A stretch of DNA of 17,684 bases. Origin: a virus (taxonomy: Duplodnaviria > Heunggongvirae > Uroviricota > Caudoviricetes). The stretch lies in IMG/VR virus record IMGVR_UViG_2667527666_000002, positions 1 to 17,684 of that record, one strand, 5' to 3'. A program made the translations under genes and the position numbers. Of this stretch, positions 1,369-17,684 are shown one piece after another; position 1 is the stretch's first letter; each line of letters begins with the position of its first letter. The notes beneath the pieces were generated by a model. It was given only the letters and a program-made list of their open reading frames with translations. It was not told the origin of the DNA and did not search any database.

Positions 1369-1444
1369 GCCGATATAGCTCAGTTGGTAGAGCAGCGCAT
1401 TCGTAATGCGAAGGTCGTAGGTTCGACTCCTATTATCGGCACCA
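1369..1444 (+). tRNA. thrW: tRNA-Thr, anticodon CGU, with encoded CCA end
   Basis: 76-nt cloverleaf-compatible sequence GCCGATATAGCTCAGTTGGTAGAGC...GGTTCGACTCCTATTATCGGCACCA; anticodon loop TT-CGT-AA; T-arm GGTTCGA present. Confidence 0.93.
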
Positions 1445-1458
1445 TTTAAATCAATAAG

Positions 1459-2596
1459 TTACACATCATTAGTACCTTCCTTATTTTTTGACTGGGACAA
1501 ATTTGGGACCGATGGGTTCAGGATCGAGTCTATTTGCCGTGCGTGTTCGGTAAGGTGATTAGGTGCAAGGTGAGCATATCGACGAACCATTTCGATAGAC
1601 TCCCAGCCTCCCATTTCCTGTAACACTGACAACGGGACTCCGGCTTGAACCAGCCAGCTTGCCCAGGTGTGTCTCAAGTCGTGAAATCTGAAATCATCAA
1701 TACCAGCCCGTCTCAGCGCCGCTTTCCAGGCTGTGTTTGCGTCATACCGCATCTTCCTGACCGTTGGCGCTTTCCTTGTACACAAATACCCAACGGTGAT
1801 GATTCCCGATTTGTTTTTTCAATACGCGACATGCAGTATCATTCAGCGCAACGCCAATTGCGCGGTTTGATTTACTCTCTTCCGGGTTTATCCATGCCAC
1901 CCGGCGCTGCATGTCTATTTGTTGCCATTCAAGGTTGATGATGTTCGAGCGTCTTAAGCCTGTTGCCAGTGCAAATTCAACAACAGACTTTAATGGCTCC
2001 GGACATTCATCAATCAGCCTTTGTGCTTCATGGGGCTCCAGCCAGCGGATCCGTTTATTCTTTGGTTGAGGCACTTTAATAATTGGTGCCTTATCCAGCA
2101 TTTTCCATTCACGCTCTGCGGCTCTTAGTAGGGCCTTTATAAATGAAAGATGCGTAGCCTTTGTTGCAACGGACGCTGGTTTTGGCATGTATTCTGGAAC
2201 AGGTTTCCCTTTTTTTCTGCATGCTTCTGCCCTGAGTTTCCAGTTTTCCTCATGACGCCGGTTCGTCATTTTCTGCATTGCTGAATAAATTTTTGATTCA
2301 GTAATGTCTCTTAGTTGCATTCCTGCGAAATGTTGAAGCCAGAATCCGATCCGGCTTTTGTCATCGTCCAGTGATTTTTTATGTGCTTTCTCTTCGAGCC
2401 ACCTGATACACGCCTCCTCGAACGTCATATCAGGTATTTCACCAAGTTTGCTGACCCGCCATGCTTCAGCCTTTAGCTTGTCATGGAGCTCTGTCGCCTG
2501 CCTTTTGTCCTTTGTTCCAAGAGACTGTTTAAATCTTTTACCGTTCGGCAATGTGAAACTGGCGTACCATATTTCACCTCTGCGGAAGAGTGACAT
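1459..2596 (-). pseudogene. int: Phage tyrosine integrase, reading frame broken near 1742-1800 (N-terminal 284-aa frame plus C-terminal catalytic fragment in another frame)
   Basis: ORF 1742-2596 begins [14 protein letters not shown] with RBS GAGGAAA upstream of the ATG at 2596; the C-terminal ORF 1459-1785 carries the HxxR box ([11 protein letters not shown]) and the Tyr-containing VRRYAHL motif but lies in a different frame. The two frames overlap over 1742-1785, consistent with a 1-nt indel near aaggaaagcgcc. Confidence 0.7.
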
Positions 2597-2823
2597 TTTC
2601 TTTCCTCTGTTATGCCATCACCCGCGCTCACCAGGACAGTATGCAGCGGAGACTGAAGCGCCGCAATGCAGGCTTGTCGTGTTGTGAGGTAAGGAGATTT
2701 TAGTTTAGTGGGGTCTTTGCGTGTTGCCTGTAGGCGGCCTGTTCGTATCCAGTTGGTAGCGGTAGGTCTGGATATCTTGAGAAACTGACAGGCCTCATCG
2801 AGTGTGAGGCTGTATGGCTCCAT
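2473..2823 (-). CDS. xis: Excisionase / AlpA-family HTH DNA-binding protein
   Basis: Start ATG at 2823 ([31 protein letters not shown], an Xis/AlpA-type HTH) overlaps the stop of the upstream gene as TAATG. The frame stays open to 2473, overlapping the int start by about 124 nt, so the true C-terminus is uncertain. Confidence 0.6.
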
Positions 2824-3128
2824 TATTTCACCTCTTGCTGTGTCATTGTTGAAAAATGGATACCAGCTCGTTGCTGCCAGACGATCCAACCGAGAGTCAT
2901 ATCCCATGCCATGTATTCGTTATCGCCGTTTTTTGCTCTCCGACGATCTACTAAGTCACCGAAACGCTTTTCCATGAATAATTCATAGGCTTCGCGTTCA
3001 TCTGGCTCTACTTCCAGAGATACGAGTGCGATTTCATAAGCACGGCGCTCAATATCGTCTCGAACCTCTAGGCTGCTGATTCGTTCTTTGATTTCTTTAA
3101 TCAGTTCTTTATTGGTAAATGTGGTCAT
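2823..3128 (-). CDS. Hypothetical early-left phage protein, 101 aa, acidic (yfdT-like by position and length, from memory)
   Basis: ORF with ATG at 3128 overlapping the upstream gene's stop (TAATG coupling); protein-like composition; last gene but one before xis in a co-directional operon. Confidence 0.55.
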   Translation of the reverse strand: MTTFTNKELIKEIKERISSLEVRDDIERRAYEIALVSLEVEPDEREAYELFMEKRFGDLVDRRRAKNGDNEYMAWDMTLGWIVWQQRAGIHFSTMTQQEVK

Positions 3129-8035: not shown

Positions 8036-8055
8036 AGGTCGGTCATGAGCACTAA
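7834..8055 (+). CDS. Hypothetical small protein, C-terminal frame (...[39 protein letters not shown]...); true start unclear (a TTG near 7876 follows GAAGGAG)
   Basis: Protein-like frame whose stop at 8053-8055 overlaps the next gene's start at 8045 by 11 nt, as expected for a genuine operon member. Confidence 0.3.
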
Positions 8056-8386
8056 ATTAACCGGCTATGTATGGGATGGTTGCGCTGCGTCAGGCATGAA
8101 ATTATCCAGCGTGGCAATTATGGCCCGCCTGGCTGATTTCAGTAATGACGAAGGTGTGTGCTGGCCATCAATTGAAACTATTGCCCGTCAGATTGGCGCG
8201 GGGATGAGTACCGTCAGAACGGCTATCGCACGGCTGGAAGCAGAAGGCTGGTTAACGCGTAAGGCGCGTCGCCAGGGTAACCGCAATGCGTCGAATGTTT
8301 ATCAGCTTAACGTTGCGAAGCTTCAGGCAGCGGCATTTTCTCAACTGTCAGATTCTGACCCGTCAAAATCTGACGCATCAAAATGA
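8045..8386 (+). pseudogene. Replication-initiator (O-like / winged-HTH N-terminal domain) gene, 3'-truncated by the IS629 insertion
   Basis: N-terminal HTH-type domain ([13 protein letters not shown]...SIETIARQIGAGMSTVRTAIARLEAEGWL); the ORF ends on the TGA formed by the first three bases of the IS inverted repeat (8384-8386); no C-terminal domain. Confidence 0.6.
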
Positions 8387-8425
8387 ACCGCCCCGGGTTT
8401 CCTGGAGAGTGTTTTATCTGTGAAC

Positions 8426-9316
8426 TCAGGCTGCCAGATCATCGTTTCCGATGGAAGCATAATAAGCTTTTTCTGCTTCTGCCGGAGGAGTATGGCCCAG
8501 CCTTTCCAGCAATCGTCGATTGTTATACCAGTCCACCCACGTGAGTGTGGCCAGTTCCACTTCTGCACGGTTTTTCCAGCTCTTACGGTGTATTACCTCC
8601 GCTTTGTAAAGACCATTGATGCTCTCCGCCATCGCGTTGTCATACGAGTCGCCTGTACTTCCTGTTGATGCCAGTAATCCGGCTTCCTTAAGCCGCTGTG
8701 TGTAGGCCAGCGATACATACTGAGAACCTTTATCACTGTGATGGACCGTGCCGGACGGTCGACGGGCCCATAACGCCTGCTCCAGTGCATCCAGCACGAA
8801 TGTCGTTTCCATGGACGATGAGACCCGCCACCCCACGATGTATCCGGCAAACACATCAATGATGAACGCCACATAGACGAAGCCCCGCCATGTGCTGACG
8901 TAAGTAAAATCAGCCACCCACAGCTGGTCAGGTCGTTCTGCCACGAACTGACGGTTTACGCGGTCGCCTGCGGCAACGGCTTTCCGGCTGATGGTCGTAC
9001 GGACCTTTTTACCCCGGAGAACACCGGCAAGTCCCATAACCGCCATGAGACGTGCCACAGTGCATCTGGCCACTCTGATACCTTCCCGTAACAACTGACG
9101 CCAGACTTTACGCACACCGTATACCTTGTGATTTTCATCGTATACGCGCTGTATCTCTTTCTTCAGCCAGTCATCGCGCTGCGCACGGGCACTGCGTTTA
9201 TCCGGATGATGTCGCTGTTGCTGACAGTGGTAATACGTTGACGGGGCAATATGCAGTTCGCTGCATAGCGGTCCGACCCCGTACTGCTCACGCAGCTTAT
9301 CCAGCAGTGGCATCAT
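8426..9316 (-). CDS. IS629-like transposase OrfB (DDE/integrase catalytic domain), 296 aa
   Basis: Translation [29 protein letters not shown]... with a DDE-type core (WVADFTYV ... HSDKGSQY ... [10 protein letters not shown]). Confidence 0.9.
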
Positions 9317-9639
9317 TTTTTCCAGAGGCGGTCGAACTCCGCCTTCGCAAAATAAGCGGAAGCCTGGCGAAGGATATCGTTACTGCGGCGCAGTTCACGA
9401 TTTTCACGTTCCAGCTCTTTCAGACGCTGACGTTCAGCGGTGGTGAGCCCTCCATCACCGCCCCCGGTATCCCGCTCATGCTGGCGAACCCAGACACGCA
9501 GAGTCTCCGGCGTACAGCCAATCTTTGGAGCAATGGAACAAATTGTCGCCCATTGTGAGTCATATTCGCTCTGACTTTCCAGAACCATACGGACTGCCCG
9601 TTGACGGACTTCGGGGGAAAAACGAGTATTTTTAGTCAT
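9313..9639 (-). CDS. IS629-like transposase OrfA (HTH), 108 aa
   Basis: Translation [42 protein letters not shown]...; identical to the orfA of the second copy at 17358-17684. Confidence 0.9.
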
Positions 9640-9693
9640 CCTGTTTACCTCTTTCTCAGGAAGTTTAGTCTCCAGGATTCCCGGGGCGGTTCA

Positions 9694-10238
9694 ATTAACA
9701 CCCTGTTTGGCCCGTTTGTTCTGGATCTGTTCACTGACGGTGATAACGCCAAATGTGCTGCGTATTACACGGCGGAAGACAACGCGCTGGCGCATGACTG
9801 GTCAGAACGCCTTGCGGAGCTTAAAGGTGCTGCCTTTGGTAATCCCCCATACAGCCGCGCCAGTCAGCATGAGGGGCAATACATCACCGGCATGCGTTAC
9901 ATCATGAAGCATGCCAGTGCCATGCGTGATAAAGGCGGGCGCTATGTTTTCCTGATCAAAGCTGCCACCAGCAAGTGTGGTGGCCGGAAGATGCAGATCA
10001 TATTGCTTTTATTCGCGGGCGTATTGGTTTTGAACTGCCTGCCTGGTTTATCCCGAAGGATGAGAAGCAGGTGCCGACAGGCGCTTTCTTCGCTGGTGCT
10101 ATTGCTGTTTTCGACAAGACCTGGAAGGGACCGGCAATCAGCTACATCGGGCGCGATGAACTTGAGGCATGTGGTGAGGCCTTTCTGGCGCAGGTTCGCC
10201 AGCAGGCAGAAAAACTGGTCAGGGAGATGGCGGCATGA
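9694..10238 (+). pseudogene. Phage Dam-type DNA N6-adenine methyltransferase remnant: 5'-truncated at the IS boundary and frameshifted near 9960-9980
   Basis: Frame 1 immediately after the IS reads INTLFGPFVLD...FGNPPYS (NPPY catalytic motif); the C-terminal part (VWWPEDADHIAFIRGRIGF...) continues in another frame (ORF 9975-10238), whose stop overlaps the next gene's ATG. Confidence 0.6.
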
Positions 10239-10561
10239 CGACGTTAACTCAATGCCAGCAGCAGGTGCTGGATATGCTGATTTCTTATCAGAAAGAACGT
10301 GGCTTCCCGCCAACCAATCAGGAGGTGGCAACCATGCTGGGATACCGTTCAGTGAATGCAGCGGTGGAGCATCTTCGCGCACTGGAGAAAAAAGGCGTCA
10401 TCACGATAAAGCGTGGCGTGGCCCGGGGCATCACGCTTCATACCGCGGTGAAGGACGACGACAGCGAGGCGGTCGGGATTATCCGCTCACTGCTTGCCGG
10501 TGAGGAAAACGCAAGGCTGCGTGCAGCCCACTGGTTACATGAGAGGGGCCTGAAAGTATGA
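10235..10561 (+). CDS. LexA N-terminal DNA-binding-domain-like protein, 108 aa, without peptidase domain
   Basis: MTTLTQCQQQVLDMLISYQKERGFPPTNQEVATMLGYRSVNAAVEHLRALEKKGVI resembles the LexA winged-HTH domain; no S24 domain follows; start/stop coupled to neighbours. Confidence 0.6.
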   Translation: MTTLTQCQQQVLDMLISYQKERGFPPTNQEVATMLGYRSVNAAVEHLRALEKKGVITIKRGVARGITLHTAVKDDDSEAVGIIRSLLAGEENARLRAAHWLHERGLKV

Positions 10562-10947
10562 AGCTGATCCTGCCTTTTCCGCCCAGCGTGAACACGTACT
10601 GGCGACACCCCAACAAAGGGGCGTTTGCTGGTAAGAGCCTGATAAGCGCGGCGGGGCGAAAATTCCAGAGCGCGGCGTGCGCAGCAATAGTTGAGCAGTT
10701 ACGTCGTCTGCCGAAACCAACGTCGGCACCTGCTTCAGTGGAGATCGTGTTGTTTCCTCCGGATAACAGGATCCGCGATCTGGACAACTATAACAAGGCG
10801 CTGTTTGACGCCCTGACCCACGCGGGGGTGTGGGAAGACGACAGTCAGGTGAAAAGAATGCTGGTGGAGTGGGGACCGGTTATCCCGGAAGGGAAGGTCG
10901 AGATCACTATCAGTAAGTACGAGAAAACGGCGGGTGCAGCTGCCTGA
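10558..10947 (+). CDS. rusA: RusA-family Holliday-junction resolvase, 129 aa
   Basis: Conserved RusA features: LPFPPSVNTYWRH near the N-terminus and RDLDNYNKALFDALT acidic catalytic region. Confidence 0.85.
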   Translation: MKLILPFPPSVNTYWRHPNKGAFAGKSLISAAGRKFQSAACAAIVEQLRRLPKPTSAPASVEIVLFPPDNRIRDLDNYNKALFDALTHAGVWEDDSQVKRMLVEWGPVIPEGKVEITISKYEKTAGAAA

Positions 10948-10966
10948 TTAAGAGGAGAAACGAAGT

Positions 10967-11776
10967 ATGAATAATCTGATGGTCATTGATGGTATTGAAG
11001 TTCGTCGTGATGCTTATGGGCGTTACAGCCTGAACGATCTGCATCGCGCAGCAGTAGCATCTGGTGCAAATGCCAGAACCAAGGAGCCAGGAAAGTTTCT
11101 TTCCAGCCAACAAACTGTTGAGCTTGTTCATGAATTAACCAACACCCAGAATTTGGGTGTTGACCCGGTGAGCGTGATTCATGGGGGAAATGAACGGGGA
11201 ACGTATGTCTGTAAGGAACTGGTGTATGCCTATGCAATGTGGATCAGCCCGTCATTCCATCTGAAGGTGATCCGTACTTTCGATATGGTAACCAGCGCGC
11301 CGGAAAAGTTATCCGGACAGGCTGCTGACAAGATGCAGGCTGGCGTGATTCTGCTGGACTTTATGCGCCGGGAGTTAAATCTGTCTAACTCATCTGTGCT
11401 TGGGGCCTGTCAGAAACTCCAGGAGGCTGTTGGCTTACCGAATCTGGCACCGCGCTATGCCATTGATGCACCTGCTGACGCGCCTGATGGCTCAAGCCGC
11501 CCCACGCTGTCGCTGAGTGCACTGCTGAAGCAGTATGGTATCCGCCTGACGGCTAATCAGGCATATCACCAGATGGCGAAGCTGGGGATCGTTGAACAAC
11601 GCGAACGATACAGCCGTACCGCGATTAACAACATCAAAAAATTCTGGTCGCTGACAGCGAAAGGCTGCATGTTCGGCAAGAACATCACCAGTCCCGCAAA
11701 TCCGCGCGAGACGCAGCCGCATTTCTTCGAATCCCGATTCCCTGAGCTGTTAAAGCTGCTCGATACCGTTCATTGA
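10967..11776 (+). CDS. KilA-N domain antirepressor-like protein, 269 aa
   Basis: N-terminal KilA-N/APSES-type domain (IDGIEVRRDAYGRYSLNDL ... GTYVCKELVYAYAMWISPSFHLKV); RBS AGGAG upstream of the ATG at 10967. Confidence 0.75.
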   Translation: MNNLMVIDGIEVRRDAYGRYSLNDLHRAAVASGANARTKEPGKFLSSQQTVELVHELTNTQNLGVDPVSVIHGGNERGTYVCKELVYAYAMWISPSFHLKVIRTFDMVTSAPEKLSGQAADKMQAGVILLDFMRRELNLSNSSVLGACQKLQEAVGLPNLAPRYAIDAPADAPDGSSRPTLSLSALLKQYGIRLTANQAYHQMAKLGIVEQRERYSRTAINNIKKFWSLTAKGCMFGKNITSPANPRETQPHFFESRFPELLKLLDTVH

Positions 11777-11777
11777 G

Positions 11778-12773
11778 GTGACCGTGAGAGCACTACTGAC
11801 CCCTGAAATTGCCCCGCGTATGGGGATCGTATTGTTCAGGCCAGGTTCAGAGCTGATGCCCCTGTTTATGCAGGGGCGTGTCCTGCTGGAGCCTGAGCCG
11901 GAACGTTATTCATCTTTTGCCAGTGGTGCCGTTCCGGCTGCATCACAACCGCTGGCGGATGATCCTGCCGTTCGGGCCGTGTTCCGCAATGAGGCAGTGA
12001 TCCGTCGTGCTGGTGGCGTGGAATGTCTTGAAAGCTGGTTACTTCGTGAAAAAGGCTGCCAGTGGCCTCATTCCGACTGGCACAGCGAGAACATGACCAC
12101 AATGCGACACGCGCCGGGCGCAATCCGTCTGTGCTGGCACTGCGATAACCAACTGCGCGATCAGTTCACGGAACGGCTGGAATCAATGGCAACGGATAAC
12201 TGTGCCCGCTGGGTGTTGTCTGTTGTGCGTCGGGATCTCGGTTTTGATGACAGTCACGTTGTGACAATGCCGGAACTGTGCTGGTGGCTGATTCGTAATG
12301 ATCTGGCGGATGCCTTACCGGAAAGTGCAGCCCGTAAGGCACTGAGATTACCGAAGCCTGTTGTGCCGTCTGTCACCCGGGAAAGTGACCTGGTGCCTTC
12401 GGTTCCTGCCACCAGCATCATCCAGGATAAAGCGAAAAAGGTGCTGGCGCTGAAAGTGGATCCGGAGTCGCCGGACTCTTTTATGTTACGCCCAAAACGT
12501 CGCCGCTGGGTTAATGAAAAGTACACGCGATGGGTTAAGACGCAGCCGTGCGCATGTTGTGGAAAACCTGCTGATGATCCCCACCACCTGATAGGCCACG
12601 GTCAGGGTGGAATGGGGACAAAAGCGCATGACCTCTTTGTGTTGCCTTTGTGCAGAAAGCATCACGACGAGCTGCATGCGGATAATGTGGCATTCGAAGA
12701 GAAGTATGGCTCCCAGCTGGAGCTGATATTTCGTTTTATCGATCGTGCGCTGACGATTGGTGTGCTGGCCTGA
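11778..12773 (+). CDS. DUF968-like nin-region protein, 331 aa, with C-terminal Cys/His (HNH-like) cluster
   Basis: C-terminal motif [43 protein letters not shown]; exact start uncertain (GTG at 11778 or 11784). Confidence 0.65.
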
Positions 12774-12790
12774 TTTTGTGGAGAAAGTTG

Positions 12791-13174
12791 ATGCGTGATA
12801 TTCAGATGGTTCTTGAGCGTTGGGGAGCGTGGGCGGCTAATAATCATGAAGATGTGACCTGGTCGTCCATTGCCGCCGGTTTTAAGGGATTAATTCCTTC
12901 AAAAGTAAAATCTCGCCCGCAATGTTGTGACGATGACGCGATGATCATTTGCGGGTGCATGGCCCGTCTGAAAAAGAACAACAGCGATTTGCACGATTTA
13001 TTAGTAGATTATTATGTAGTCGGTATGACATTCATGTCACTGGCAGGTAAGCATTGCTGCTCTGATGGTTATATCGGGAAAAGGTTACAAAAAGCTGAGG
13101 GCATAATTGAAGGGATGTTAATGGCATTAGATATCTGGTTAGAGATGGATATCGTTGTTAATAACTCTAATTAA
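12791..13174 (+). CDS. Q: Late-gene antitermination protein Q (short Q family), 127 aa
   Basis: Start at the ATG at 12791 with GGAG 8 nt upstream (the ORF track's 12776 start is a TTG); last gene of the nin-like block, in the position Q occupies upstream of the lysis cassette. Confidence 0.7.
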
Positions 13175-13207
13175 TATGCCAATTGTTTACTAAAAATTAT
13201 TAAAAAT

Positions 13208-13225
13208 GGGGCGTTGAGACGCCCC
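13208..13225 (-). terminator. Candidate intrinsic terminator for the porin gene (stem GGGGCGT / ACGCCCC, 4-nt loop, followed on the minus strand by AUUUUUAAUAAUUUUU)
   Basis: Hairpin and U-rich tract read directly; lies about 140 nt beyond the porin stop, after three further hairpins. Confidence 0.4.
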
Positions 13226-13363
13226 CAAAAATAAAGGGTAATATATAACAGAAGGTTTATATAGTTAGAAGCAAGGTTGTGCTTCTAAAGGAAGTGGCTT
13301 GAGGGAGCCACTTATATGTTGGGGAGGCAACGCCTCCCGCAACATATCTTTTTCGTAATCAGA

Positions 13364-14446
13364 TTAGAACTGGTAAACCAGACCTACAGCAACGATGTCA
13401 TCAGTATCAATACCAGCTGTTTTGGTAAACTTACTATCGTCAATTAAGTTGATTTTGTAATCAACAAAAGTGGACATGTTTTTATTAAAGTAGTAAGTAG
13501 CACCGACATCGACATACTTGACTAAGTCTCGGTCACCATGAACACCAAGGTCTTTACCTTTTGACTGAAGGTAAGCAACAGATGGGCGCAGACCGAAGTC
13601 AAACTGATATTGTGCTACTGCTTCAAAGTTTTGTGCTTTGTTTGCAATATGGTTATTACCAAAAACGGTCATATTCTGAGTTTCAGAATATGTGGTAGCC
13701 AGATAGATATTGTTCGCATCATATTTCAGGCCTGCAGCCCATACTTCCGCATTTTTGCCGGAGGCATTGAATTTGCTCTTACCATAGGCGACCTGACCGT
13801 CAGTGCGATCTGATTTAGCATAGGTTGCACCCACGCCGAATCCTTCATACTCATAAGTAGTGGAGAAACCGAAACCATCACCATTGGCTTCAGTTACGTC
13901 AGTGCGGTCATTTTTACCCTGATACTGAGCAGCAAAGTTCAGGCCATCGACCAGACCAAAGAAGTCGTTGTTACGATAAGTTGCAACACCAGTAGTGCGA
14001 CCAGTCATGAACACATCTGTTTGGGTCCAGGTATCACCACCGAATTCTGGCAGGACGTCAGTCCACGCACCGATGTCGTATGCTACACCGTAGTTACGGC
14101 CGTAATCGATTGAGCCGTAATCACCAAATTTCAGGCCTGCAAATGCAAGACGGGTTTTGTCTTTGGAAGAACCTTGAGATTCAGCGCGGTTGCCTTTGAA
14201 TTCATATTCCCACTGACCGAAACCAGTCAGTTGATCGTTGATTTGGGTTTCACCTTTGAAGCCAAGACGGGCATAAGTAGTATCACCATCATCTGCATCA
14301 TTAGAGGAGAAGTAGTGCTTAGCATTAACTTTCCCGTACAGATCCAGCTTGTTACTGTCTTTATTATAAATTTCAGCTGCCTGAGCAGACATCGCCATCA
14401 GTACTGATGCAGCTACAGCAGAAATTGCCACTGTTAATTTTTTCAT
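13364..14446 (-). CDS. General-diffusion outer-membrane porin, OmpC/NmpC/Lc family, 360 aa precursor
   Basis: Signal peptide ending AQA-AE; mature N-terminus [17 protein letters not shown] typical of OmpC-family porins; C-terminal ...VGLVYQF beta-barrel signature; opposite strand to flanking phage late genes. Confidence 0.92.
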
Positions 14447-14874
14447 CGTGAGCCCTTTTTTTTGAACTATTATTAAAAAATGATGTCACTGCGCGATAAA
14501 TATTCATCTAATCAATGTGATTATTTCAAGATGTAAGTTTTGGTTTCTCGTTTGATTTGTGAAGTAGATCTCTATTTTTATCTGAACTTTTTTCTATCGA
14601 ATCCTATTCATAGCTCTTGGCTGAATAAAAATAAATCTATTAGCCAATTTATACTAACGGTTGTTATTTATAAGTGCTCTATAATTTGAAGGTTCAATTT
14701 AAATCGGCTAAAAATAACACTGGAAATTATTTGTTGGTTATTTGTTGAGATTTGCTTATGTATTTGTAGTGGTGTTTTCAATACTCGGTAGCATTCTCGC
14801 AAATATCATTTAGTGGTTTACGTACGTAAAAAATTGGTTATGCTGTTAAGAGTGGTTACTTCGTCACACAGCTT

Positions 14875-14908
14875 AAACCCGCCGTCGAGCGGGTTTTTCC
14901 ATTTTTTG
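14875..14908 (+). terminator. Intrinsic terminator (8-bp stem AAACCCGC / GCGGGTTT, then TTTTTCCATTTTTT), candidate tR' about 115 bp upstream of the holin gene
   Basis: Perfect stem followed by a T-rich tract on the plus strand; no plus-strand gene ends upstream, consistent with a short terminated late-promoter leader transcript. Confidence 0.6.
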
Positions 14909-15019
14909 AGTCTCGATATTAGCTGATAACCCAATACCTGAGTTATTCACTGACTTCGAGTCTGTTACGTTTCGTAGTATTCCCTCAATTTACACCCGCT
15001 TTGTCTGCGAGGTGGGGTT

Positions 15020-15235
15020 ATGAAATCCATGGATAAGTTAACAACGGGTGTCGCCTATGGCACCTCAGCAGGTAGTGCCGGGTACTGGTTTTTACAGCTG
15101 CTAGATAAAGTCACGCCCTCACAGTGGGCGGCAATTGGAGTGCTGGGTAGCCTGGTATTTGGCCTGCTGACGTACCTGACAAACCTTTATTTCAAGATTA
15201 AAGAAGATAAGCGTAAGGCTGCGAGAGGTGAATAA
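15020..15235 (+). CDS. S: Phage-21-type class II holin (pinholin), 71 aa
   Basis: Two predicted TM helices with the glycine-zipper-like [10 protein letters not shown]; basic C-terminus [11 protein letters not shown]; stop overlaps the endolysin start (TAATG). Confidence 0.9.
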
Positions 15236-15732
15236 TGTCGCCATCATTACGCAAGGCTGTAGCAGCTGCTATTGGTGGTGGGGCTGTTGCCATAGCGTCT
15301 GTGCTCATCACTGGTCCGAGTGGTGACGATGGTCTGGAAGGTGTCAGCTACATACCATATAAAGATATTGTTGGTGTATGGACTGTATGTCACGGGCATA
15401 CAGGAAAAGACATCATGCTCGGTAAAACGTATACCAAAGCAGAATGCAAAGCACTCTTGAATAAAGACCTTGCCACTGTCGCCAGACAAATTAACCCGTA
15501 CATCGAAGTCGATATACCGGAAACAACGCGCGGCGCTCTTTACTCATTCGTTTACAACGTGGGTGCTGGCAATTTCAGAACATCGACGCTTCTTCGCAAA
15601 ATAAACCAGGGCGATATCAAAGGCGCATGTGATCAGCTACGGCGCTGGACATACGCTGGCGGTAATCAATGGAAAGGACTGATGACTCGCCGTGAGATTG
15701 AGCGTGAAGTCTGTTTGTGGGGGAAACAATGA
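15235..15732 (+). CDS. R: SAR (signal-anchor-release) endolysin, lysozyme-like, 165 aa
   Basis: N-terminal Gly/Ala-rich SAR domain ([20 protein letters not shown]) followed by a lysozyme-type catalytic domain; stop overlaps the Rz start (ATGA). Confidence 0.92.
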
Positions 15733-16187
15733 GCAGAGTAACCGCGATTATCTCCGCTCTGGTTATCTGCATCATCGTCTGCCTGTCATGGGCTGTTAAT
15801 CATTACCGTGATAACGCCATTACCTACAAAGCCCAGCGCGACAAAAATGTCAGAGAACTGGAGAAGGCGAACGCCACCATCGCTGACATGCGGAAGCGTC
15901 AACGTGATGTAGCAGAACTCGATGCAAGATACACAAAGGAGCTTGCTGATGCTAACGCGACTATCGAAAGTCTCCGTGCTGATGTTTCTGCTGGGCGTAA
16001 GCGCCTGCAAGTCGCCGCCACCTGTGCAAAGTCAACGACCGGAGCCAGCGGCATGGGCGATGGAGAAAGCCCAGGACTTACAGCAGATGCTGAACTCAAT
16101 TATTACCGTCTCCGAAGTGGAATCGACAAGATAACCGCGCAGGTTAACTACCTGCAGGAATACATCAGGACGCAATGCCTGAAATAA
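15729..16187 (+). CDS. Rz: Rz i-spanin, 152 aa
   Basis: ATG at 15729 overlapping the endolysin stop; N-terminal TM helix ([17 protein letters not shown]) followed by a coiled-coil-like periplasmic domain. Confidence 0.8.
15949..16134 (+). CDS. Rz1: Rz1 o-spanin lipoprotein, about 61 aa, embedded in the +1 frame of Rz
   Basis: Signal peptide [20 protein letters not shown] with lipobox VSAC, then proline-rich [13 protein letters not shown]; lies entirely within Rz in a different frame. Confidence 0.7.
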
Positions 16188-16219
16188 TTTTTTTGCAAAT
16201 CACAAAGTCCATTTAATGA

Positions 16220-16241
16220 GCCTCGCGATGCGGGGCTTTTT
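16220..16241 (+). terminator. Intrinsic terminator after the lysis cassette (stem GCCTCGC / GCGGGGC with one G-U pair, 3-nt loop, then TTTTT)
   Basis: GC-rich hairpin immediately followed by a T5 run, 33 nt after the Rz stop. Confidence 0.5.
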
Positions 16242-16248
16242 GCAATAA

Positions 16249-16273
16249 ATGCGTACCGCAACGCATGTTTTTT
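16249..16273 (+). terminator. Second tandem terminator-like hairpin (ATGCGT / ACGCAT, then GTTTTTT)
   Basis: 6-bp stem followed by a T6 run directly downstream of the first terminator. Confidence 0.4.
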
Positions 16274-16388
16274 ACACCGAACCTGCCCCTTTGGAATGGG
16301 CCTTTGAGGATACCAGTTAGTGCTGGCGAGCCTCGGTGGGCTGGTTTCCTGTGCGGCAAAGGTTCATTTCAAAGAGTAGGTACACGCT

Positions 16389-16886
16389 ATGAAATCATTA
16401 ACCCTCTTCAATTAACCAATTCGTATCGGTGAAGATGGCATGATCTGCCTCACTGATATGTGGAAAGCCAGTGGTAAAAGTGAATCTGAATCGCCTTACC
16501 ACTACCTGCGAAACAAGCAGACCAAAGAGTTCTTAGCCGAGCTGGAGAAAAACCACGAATCTGTGGTTTTTACTGAGCGCGGTGTACACGGTGGAACATA
16601 TGGCGGGAAGTTTGTTGCTTACGATTATGCGGCTTGGTTAAACCCCGGGTTCAAGTACGCGGCCTATAAAGTCCTCGATGACTACTTCACCGGAGAACTT
16701 CAGCATCGCAACAGCTTAAGTGCGCAGCTCAACATGAAATGTCATGAGTTTGACCAGAAGAAAGACATGGCGAGCTTCTGCGGACAAGGGCTGGCAGCAT
16801 GGCGCTATACTAAGCCAGTGTTGGTCGCTGAGATTAACTCCCTGGCTAACCAGCTGCAGATTACGATCCCCGGGCTTCCGGGATGA
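16389..16886 (+). pseudogene. KilA-N domain gene, paralogous to 10967-11776, with an in-frame TAA at codon 9 (16413-16415); a product may still be made from the internal ATG at 16440
   Basis: ATG at 16389 (MKSLTLFN), in-frame TAA, then the same frame continues PIRIGEDGMICLTDMWKASGK...GTYGGKFVAYDYAAWLNPGF (KilA-N signature), aligning with the N-terminus of the intact paralog. Confidence 0.5.
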
Positions 16887-17146
16887 GTGATCATGTTATT
16901 GAATGCGCCTCCAGAGCGGGGCGCGACTTCTCAGAGTTCATGAAAGGCGAGAAGGGCATGATGGAAGCATTGGCCTCGGTGGACGAGTTTGGCGAGCAGC
17001 TGCGCCTCAACGGCTGTGTCAATCATCACTTTGTTAGCTACATGATGCGGAACTCGATCATGCAGGCATTCATGGACATGGCAAAAGCCGAGAGGAAAGA
17101 AGAGCGCCGGCGTAAGCGAGCGGAAGCAAAAGCAAAAGTGAAGTAG
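16883..17146 (+). CDS. Hypothetical phage protein, 87 aa, Lys/Arg/Glu-rich C-terminus
   Basis: ATG at 16883 overlaps the upstream stop (ATGA coupling); protein-like composition; no family recognised. Confidence 0.5.
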   Translation: MSDHVIECASRAGRDFSEFMKGEKGMMEALASVDEFGEQLRLNGCVNHHFVSYMMRNSIMQAFMDMAKAERKEERRRKRAEAKAKVK

Positions 17147-17303
17147 CCATTACAAAGCCCATTTACGGGTGGGCTTGATAATGAAACCGGAATTTATTCT
17201 GGGCCACCAGTTAACGGCAGTACCACGAAACAACCCAAGCCAGTAAGTGGGGAAATAACACCGGCAGCCACTGAAAGATGAACCTCCTGCCTTATGGCAA
17301 AAA

Positions 17304-17684
17304 TGAACCGCCCCGGGAATCCTGGAGACTAAACTTCCTGAGAAAGAGGTAAACAGGATGACTAAAAATACTCGTTTTTCCCCCGAAGTCCGTCAACGGG
17401 CAGTCCGTATGGTTCTGGAAAGTCAGAGCGAATATGACTCACAATGGGCGACAATTTGTTCCATTGCTCCAAAGATTGGCTGTACGCCGGAGACTCTGCG
17501 TGTCTGGGTTCGCCAGCATGAGCGGGATACCGGGGGCGGTGATGGAGGGCTCACCACCGCTGAACGTCAGCGTCTGAAAGAGCTGGAACGTGAAAATCGT
17601 GAACTGCGCCGCAGTAACGATATCCTTCGCCAGGCTTCCGCTTATTTTGCGAAGGCGGAGTTCGACCGCCTCTGGAAAAAATGA
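17304..17684 (+). mobile_element. Second IS629/IS1203-like element, opposite orientation to the first, truncated by the window end
   Basis: Left inverted repeat TGAACCGCCCCGGGAATCCTGGAGACTAAACTTCCTG begins at 17304 and matches the reverse complement of 9657-9693; orfA follows. Confidence 0.9.
17358..17684 (+). CDS. IS629-like transposase OrfA, 108 aa
   Basis: Translation identical to the OrfA of the first IS copy; stop TGA at 17682-17684. Confidence 0.9.

Follow-up and report, generated by a model that had tools for sequence, protein, structure and literature searches.

An IS629-like insertion sequence lies at 8384-9693 of the stretch of DNA analysed here, 17,684 nt of an E. coli prophage (hereafter the window). 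The question that it raises is whether the element simply landed among the phage genes, or whether phage DNA was lost with it, and by which route. An earlier, sequence-only reading took the second view: it proposed an insertion with an adjacent deletion that removed the replication module, and expected the prophage to be replication-defective. The window matches scaffold KQ087962.1 of E. coli GCA_001030635.1 with 100% identity, and the prophage sits at tRNA-Thr(CGT) (thrW), adjoining proA, on the E. coli chromosome. Genomes and contigs compared with it are designated L001, L002, and so on.

A complete IS629 and its two flanks

The insertion was recovered at exactly the coordinates first proposed. 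It is a complete IS629 of the IS3 family, 1,310 bp long (8384-9693), with its transposase genes on the minus strand, and it starts with TGAACCGCCCCGGGTTTCC and finishes with GGATTCCCGGGGCGGTTCA. Many chromosomal and plasmid copies in E. coli are 100% identical to it over all of its 1,310 bp, and bear the annotation IS3 family or IS1203. Matches to the window IS629 were found in 4,264 of the 5,426 complete E. coli genomes and in 176 phage records. The feature annotated as "insertion sequence: IS3 family IS629" in LC567824.1 is 99.5% identical over the full length, the threshold for assignment to IS629 being ≥95%. The terminal inverted repeats are imperfect and have TGAACCGCCCCGGG as their first bases: the orfB-distal repeat (TGAACCGCCCCGGGTTTCCTGGAGA, 8384-8408) matches the orfA-proximal one (9669-9693, reverse complement TGAACCGCCCCGGGAATCCTGGAGA) in inverted orientation at 23 of 25 nt (92%).

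The two ORFs typical of IS629 were identified on the minus strand. The first, orfA (9313-9639, from the ORF list and the gene table), encodes 108 aa with an HTH_Tnp_1 domain. The second, orfB (8426-9316), is a 296-aa ORF in the -1 frame relative to orfA, with an rve/DDE integrase domain (Pfam rve; NF033516, IS3 family transposase, E = 1e-93). An A6 run in the orfA/orfB overlap is accompanied by a downstream pseudoknot, the arrangement of a programmed -1 frameshift; this ALIL pseudoknot (RF01497) was detected over the full-length model at 9242-9358, minus strand, with 120.2 bits against a gathering score of 50 (E = 4e-32). The sequence of the element is uninterrupted and contains no N bases. 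Judged by these features, IS629 is complete and apparently functional and active. A consensus promoter and terminator scan across it gave nothing above shuffled expectation, i.e. neither an outward promoter nor a strong terminator.

The left flank had been read as codon 113 of a replication initiator gene whose stop is donated by the IS, and this was borne out. The ORF at 8045-8386 (plus strand, from the ORF list) has 113 codons followed by TGA, and this TGA is made of the first three bases of the IS. In phage vB_EcoM-689R6 (L001), the end of the left flank falls at 2760, codon 113 of the 313-codon "DNA replication protein O", and in prophage L018 the same O portion is found at 1272-1610 with 100% identity. 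The full-length 313-aa homologue matches phrog_391, "replication initiation O-like", over aa 1-313 (E = 4.5e-135), and its C-terminal part also matches DnaD-like helicase-loader and replisome-organiser PHROGs. A PDB sequence search with the O protein returned weak MarR-type wHTH matches only. The protein thus combines a winged helix with membership of the O-like family, as lambda O-type initiators do; the N-terminal winged helix (Pfam HTH_36, aa 23-70, E = 7e-12) is the sole O domain surviving in the window. No separate gene for a P-type helicase loader or a helicase was found in the module, which in intact relatives reads O, perC-like, dam, lexA-like, rusA; the O-like protein is therefore the only recognisable replication function of the phage.

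The lambda origin of replication lies within the O gene. In intact L018, about 6 repeats with a 15-bp period occupy 1560-1682, inside the O gene at the domain linker, with more GATCCGTCAG repeats after the array and a local GC minimum of 0.37 at 1590-1649. By analogy, this iteron-like array inside O is probably the phage origin. The IS junction, at L018 1610/1611, cuts the array: 2-3 units remain in the window (8348-8383), and about half of the array is lost.

On the other side, the right flank proved to be, as first described, a methyltransferase gene truncated at its 5' end. Alignment to the dam gene of L001 shows that it starts at L001 position 3962, codon 37 of the 217-codon Dam; the remnant of this phage N6-adenine methyltransferase gene spans 9694-10238 on the plus strand, and the intact homologue carries the Pfam Dam domain (E = 1e-45). 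The remnant lacks one G between 9972 and 9973. Since this 1-nt frameshift is common to IS-free relatives (it is present in L018, L020, L021 and L023-L032), dam was a pseudogene before the IS event. The frameshifted 87-aa Dam ORF is found in 649 blocks of the protein collection.

The missing 1,201 bp

The closest IS-free relatives of the window are L018 (GCA_016850225.1) and L020 (GCA_026281945.1). The left flank is 100% identical to both (over 1,611 nt for L018 and 1,204 nt for L020), and the right flank differs from them at 4 of 7,611 positions (99.95% identity). In intact relatives the two flanks are collinear, on the same strand, and separated by 1,201 bp (L001 and L018) or 1,199 bp (phage SfII, L002, where the positions equivalent to the two flanks are 3078 and 4278). 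Aligning the flanks to intact prophages thus measures the deleted segment: it corresponds to L018 1611-2811, i.e. 1,201 bp. It comprised codons 114-313 of O with about half of the iteron-like array, the first 36 codons of dam and, between the two, the whole perC/yfdN-like gene, which encodes 164 aa (Pfam PerC). The gene order was examined in SfII, vB_EcoM-689R6, L018, L020 and L023-L031, and the natural adjacency of an O N-terminus with dam, which would have spoken against a deletion, was encountered in none of these IS-free relatives: all have a 313-aa O, then perC, then dam. The statement that the replication module was removed nevertheless needs tempering: O codons 114-313 are gone, whereas the N-terminal winged helix and 2-3 iteron units are still there.

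No target-site duplication flanks the element, in agreement with the first reading: the flanks are AAA and ATT when 3 bp are compared, AAAA and ATTA when 4 bp are compared, and none appeared upon realignment. Each IS boundary is ambiguous by 1 nt only (a T on the left, an A on the right). The 3-4 bp duplication expected of IS629 is missing at 8384-9693 because 1,201 bp have been lost. Simple IS629 insertions elsewhere in the same module keep 3-bp duplications, GTA in FORC_042 and CAA in Stx2a_WGPS2, so that its absence here is informative. Among O157 sites in four genomes, the 3-4 bp duplication of IS629 was kept at only 21 of 47, the other 26 being without (PMC3271280). Both junctions are flush with full IS termini, and the endpoints share no significant homology, as looked for in an adjacent deletion. 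Because the ends are flush and intact, the flanks keep their order and strand, and neither duplication nor endpoint homology is found, the locus carries the signature of an IS-associated deletion. We consider it very probable that an IS629-associated deletion of 1.2 kb is really present. The prophage is lambdoid and SfII/CPS-53-like, and the loss affects its early-right operon.

The outer junctions are reproduced across three independent assemblies: the junction between O codon 113 and the IS is also present in GCA_002475195.1 (L006), and the junction between the IS and ATTAAC of dam in GCA_003999985.1 (L022). Exact-match searches for the left junction found nothing in GTDB representative genomes, JGI metagenomes or IMG/VR; those for the right junction found nothing in GTDB or JGI metagenomes, and one match in IMG/VR (L004, see below). 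Neither junction was found contiguous in the 5,426 complete E. coli genomes, with whole-window and junction queries. Three genomes that apparently matched the window with 100% coverage were discarded, the IS copies being 155-538 bp off the window breakpoints.

Routes to the deletion

The first reading called the event an IS-mediated adjacent deletion. The collinear loss of 1,201 bp and the flush junctions agree with this; recombination between two IS copies, however, gives the same product. We lean slightly towards the adjacent deletion by one IS. A single IS629 would first have landed at one of the two endpoints, O codon 113 or dam codon 37. One of its ends would then have been joined to neighbouring DNA by a one-ended strand transfer that depends on transposase, possibly with IEE-type repair, and the DNA between the IS end and its new target would have been lost, leaving the IS intact, flush junctions and no duplication. 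The structure and the 1,201-bp loss are evident from the alignments, while the one-IS route, and the side on which DNA would have been deleted, we infer.

Published work offers close parallels. Transposases of the IS3 family can produce adjacent deletions that leave the IS intact, with endpoint homology of at most 6 bp (PMC8860574). In that study (Kanai et al. 2022), deletions started exactly at the IS end, the IS could stay intact, and there was little or no homology, as here; it used a plasmid and an over-expressed fused transposase, with or without IEE, whereas the window holds a natural end product whose route is deduced. IS629-adjacent deletions obtained in IEE/transposase reactions range from a few nt to more than 40 kb (PMC9943667). 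The prophage IS629 events of E. coli O157:H7 (Rump et al. 2011, PMC3271280) involve the same element, with 99.5-100% identity, and share with our case the preference for prophages (62% of IS629 copies reside in them), a 3-4 bp duplication at simple insertions, its frequent absence, and adjacent deletions. Ooka 2009 and Kusumoto 2011, as cited in PMC9943667, also concern such IS629 events in O157:H7. As a difference from the O157:H7 cases, the fdeC flank of the present prophage (see below) shares 99.9% identity with E. coli 042 and further non-O157 strains, and the present junction pair is absent from the 5,426 complete E. coli genomes.

Several points weigh against the one-IS route. Elements that, like IS629, transpose by copy-out-paste-in are not expected to give classic replicative adjacent deletions (bioRxiv 10.1101/2023.06.07.543989), and for such an element an extra step, aberrant strand transfer or repair, must be assumed. 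Moreover, no intermediate with the IS at one endpoint and the other side intact was found in the 5,426 E. coli genomes or IMG/VR: neither an IS at O codon 113 with intact downstream O, nor an IS at dam codon 37 with intact upstream dam. These searches used exact and degenerate patterns and synthetic junction queries.

A possible but less probable route starts from two directly oriented IS629 copies, one at O codon 113 with an AAA duplication and one at dam codon 37 with an ATT duplication. RecA-dependent recombination between them would remove the 1,201 bp together with one IS; the second copy may also have come from the first by a short local transposition. Such a history would leave the same structure, one complete IS629 with flush junctions between unmatched AAA and ATT. 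In the lineage, several IS629 copies are 100% identical to one another, IS629 has struck the O-perC-dam module of other strains repeatedly, and recombination between IS copies, in the form of an inversion, evidently occurred at a second copy in the same genome. On the other hand, two insertions within 1.2 kb are required, and neither simple insertion was found in any genome searched.

The dam-37 nucleotide has been used by IS629 in another strain too, which speaks for the two-copy route; the orientation of the IS in that case speaks against it. The IMG/VR metagenomic contig L004 reproduces window 9694-16478 with two mismatches (99.97% identity), and its IS629 abuts dam ATTAAC at the same nucleotide by its orfB-distal end, versus the orfA-proximal end in the window, i.e. 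in the orientation opposite to the one that the two-copy route requires. At its other extremity, an IS629 end is joined after position 16478, not after 17303. Recombination between IS copies never swaps the IS end found on a flank. The dam nucleotide must therefore have been hit by another event of the transposition type, which shows that the dam-37 site saw more than one such event and also counts against the one-IS route. Candidate explanations for L004 are a target hot spot, an insertion next to a resident IS end, an in-place inversion, for which the 14 identical bp shared by the IS629 termini are a candidate substrate, or transposition of the segment with one IS as a unit. A search for the partner junction predicted from L004 did not find it.

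Other IS629 hits were seen at O codon 258 (UTME-1), at O codon 292 and the perC 3' end (FORC_042), and in the perC-like gene (Stx2a_WGPS2); these were partly selected by the query design and do not establish a regional preference. It appears rather doubtful to us that the action of IS629 on this module is site-specific or end-targeted and not random. If true, it would imply a strong hot spot, insertion beside a resident IS end, or in-place inversion of the IS and, taken with the recurrent O-perC-dam hits, it could reflect a repeated, selected knock-out of prophage replication. The one feature that is slightly out of the ordinary is that, in near-identical prophages, different IS629 ends have used the same nucleotides.

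Two further readings share only a small part of the probability. In the first, the deletion would have arisen during insertion itself, the ends of a circle junction being integrated non-concertedly at two sites 1.2 kb apart. One IS with flush ends and no duplication would also result, and both endpoints resemble ordinary targets of IS629, whose other junctions in the phage follow A-runs. We regard it as very unlikely: it is less parsimonious than the documented routes, and nothing supports it for IS629 in PMC3271280, PMC9943667 or PMC8860574.

The second, which we rate as a shade less probable still, is an assembly artefact, in which contigs ending in IS629 were collapsed or mis-joined, so that the locus in fact still contains the 1.2-kb segment or another IS. 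The source is a scaffold-level short-read assembly, in which continuity across the 1.3-kb repeat rests on scaffolding, and the related assemblies L006 and L022 break exactly at IS ends. Furthermore, segment 9694-17303 abuts the same type of IS end on both sides, so that junction reads alone would not fix its orientation. Against an artefact, the IS629 sequence runs through without N bases, the two outer junctions occur in three assemblies and no inner junction emerged from the searches, and a genome with a simple insertion would not yield both outer junctions. Finally, the idea that nothing was deleted, an initiator N-domain lying naturally next to dam with IS629 inserted between them, is practically nil, being refuted by the O(313 aa)-perC-dam order of all IS-free relatives examined, including those with an identical left flank, and by O being cut mid-gene inside a repeat array and dam at codon 37.

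A second IS629 and the state of the prophage

A second IS629 copy, inverted and 100% identical to the first, begins at 17304; its first 381 bp (17304-17684, plus strand) are in the window, which ends within it. The full copy corresponds to L015 10422-11731, with flanks AAA and GAC and no target-site duplication. After the position equivalent to 17303, IS-free relatives (L016-L020) continue with DUF1398, terminase, portal and head genes. In the source scaffold the second IS is followed instead by an HTH gene, of which the 3' part is present, and by fdeC (minus strand), ykgR, ykgM, ykgO, ecpR and ecpA (plus strand). In E. coli 042, relative to proA and thrW on the plus strand, the order is ecp (minus), then fdeC (plus) and the HTH gene (minus). 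The order and strands being opposite, the fdeC-ecp chromosomal segment is inverted in the source. Recombination between two IS629 copies in inverted orientation accounts best for this inversion, as read from a single scaffold-level assembly. The prophage would then be split at the second IS629, and its late region, if still present, would lie tens of kilobases away in opposite orientation.

Two other origins of the inverted pair were considered and set aside. Intramolecular replicative inversion does not account for it, the bracketed segment being collinear with the phage order and the triplets not being inverted copies. Nor do the two copies form a composite transposon bracketing 9694-17303: there is no outer duplication (AAA and GAC), and the genes inside follow the usual order of the phage. 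The junction at 17303 recurs in L021, a more divergent phage, but not in L018, the closest relative, which is free of the IS.

As the C-terminal two-thirds of the initiator and half of the iteron array are gone, the prophage should be unable to start its own replication. Its only initiator is truncated, the putative origin is cut in two, and the operon leading to the Q antiterminator is broken: the 1.3-kb insertion, antisense to the rightward early transcript, would separate rusA ... Q from pR. The split from the late genes at the second IS would alone prevent the formation of complete phage genomes. The first reading was thus right in direction, and the prophage appears more defective than it stated. 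Together with the inversion bounded by the second IS629, the deletion would have left, at thrW, a mere remnant of an SfII/CPS-53-like phage, fixed in the chromosome.

Other prophages with this module illustrate different outcomes. In the Stx2-converting phage Stx2a_WGPS2 (AP012537), which has the same O - perC-like - dam - lexA-like - rusA module, an IS629 in the same orientation lies about 1 kb away from the present site; it is a simple insertion with a CAA duplication and no loss of DNA, and the copy is 96.3% identical to that of the window. The FORC_042 prophage at 3.70 Mb has its O gene cut by an IS629 in the same orientation, also without duplication (GACC and TTCC), and has lost its right part up to the IS; it differs by its breakpoint, codon 292, and by a loss or rearrangement that extends past the prophage into the chromosome, on the ompT-envY side. 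The yfdM-yfdN region of the K-12 prophage CPS-53 (KpLE1) has the same perC-like/dam module with 99.2% identity. CPS-53 is a decayed, non-replicating prophage remnant and, to our knowledge, its decay was not mediated by IS629.

Insertions, deletions and inversions by IS629 are already well documented in E. coli prophages; the present case is one of a known IS and a known common mode of prophage decay, and leaves the general understanding unchanged. The locus may be useful for IS629-based strain typing. For annotation, the ORFs of the 113-aa "HTH protein" and the 87-aa "Dam" are pseudogene fragments. The same 113-aa ORF is present in 402 blocks of the collection, which could be taken for a widespread truncation; we rejected this, most of the blocks shown being short-read contigs from unrelated prophages that end at this place. 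A likely cause of these contig breaks is the 30-nt repeat unit, which equals k-1 for k = 31, and one such block continues with TC, i.e. with the intact sequence.

IS629 junctions and rearrangements

A second IS629 copy enters the window at 17304-17684, inverted with respect to the first and 100% identical to it; its full length is seen in L015, a contig that carries it entire (10422-11731). The triplets at its two sides are AAA and GAC, so that there is no target-site duplication. Past this copy, the scaffold carries the 3' portion of an HTH gene, followed by fdeC, ykgR, ykgM, ykgO, ecpR and ecpA, an order which is reversed compared to E. coli 042. This implies an IS629-bounded inversion, which parts the early region of the prophage from its late genes.

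Related phages have junctions of their own. At 3.70 Mb in E. coli FORC_042 (L034), an IS629 in the same orientation as that of the window (L034 4288-5598) truncates the same O-like gene at codon 292. Its far side is chromosomal ompT-envY DNA, and no target-site duplication is present: here too a related prophage has lost its right part at an IS629 boundary. The near-identical contig L004 (IMGVR_UViG_3300029234_000076) differs from the window by 2 mismatches over 6.8 kb, its ends matching window positions 9694 and 16478. The latter is followed by an IS629 end, within a 148-aa KilA-N/ORF11CD3 gene. Recombination between IS copies was ruled out as the source of the L004 junctions, as at the dam junction nucleotide of the window (9694) it is the opposite IS629 end that is attached. 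The 17303|IS629 junction is also found in L021 (L021 10422 corresponds to window 17304), a phage that is more divergent, has another type of O and keeps the 5' end of dam intact. In L019, another relative, an IS629 end lies within the lysozyme gene (138/139, equivalent to window 15227/15228). This phage group thus holds many IS629 junctions, independent or recombined.

The truncated initiator gene and the dam remnant

The exact 113-aa partial O ORF was found in 402 blocks of the protein collection. Most of those shown (ends of L007-L014) belong to short-read contigs whose prophage surroundings are unrelated and which stop at the IS-junction nucleotide; one of them reads on with TC, the intact sequence. 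The repeat unit there (window 8354-8383) is 30 nt long, that is k-1 for k=31, so the end shared by these contigs was interpreted as an assembly break rather than as the same IS truncation. The iteron-like array has one additional 15-bp unit at 1.70 Mb in E. coli FORC_042 (L036 1188-1290), in an O gene of 318 codons, showing that the repeats within the initiator gene vary in copy number.

In the dam remnant, one G is absent at window 9972/9973, causing a frameshift; the resulting 87-aa ORF occurs in 649 blocks of the collection. Thus dam was a pseudogene already ahead of the IS event, because the IS-free relatives (L018, L020, L021, L023-L032) have the same 1-nt frameshift.

Integrase, attachment site and porin gene

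The integrase ORF (window 1742-2907, minus strand) encodes only 284 aa and shares 124 nt with the excisionase ORF. Its match to the large integrase PHROG covers positions 119-368 of the latter, and an arm-binding N-terminal domain therefore appears to be absent. The attachment site is a tRNA-Thr(CGT) gene (window 1369-1444). A porin gene (window 13364-14446, minus strand; 360 aa, Porin_1/Porin_4) is flanked by the genes for the Q antiterminator and the holin; it is a moron-type cargo gene that is conserved in the relatives.
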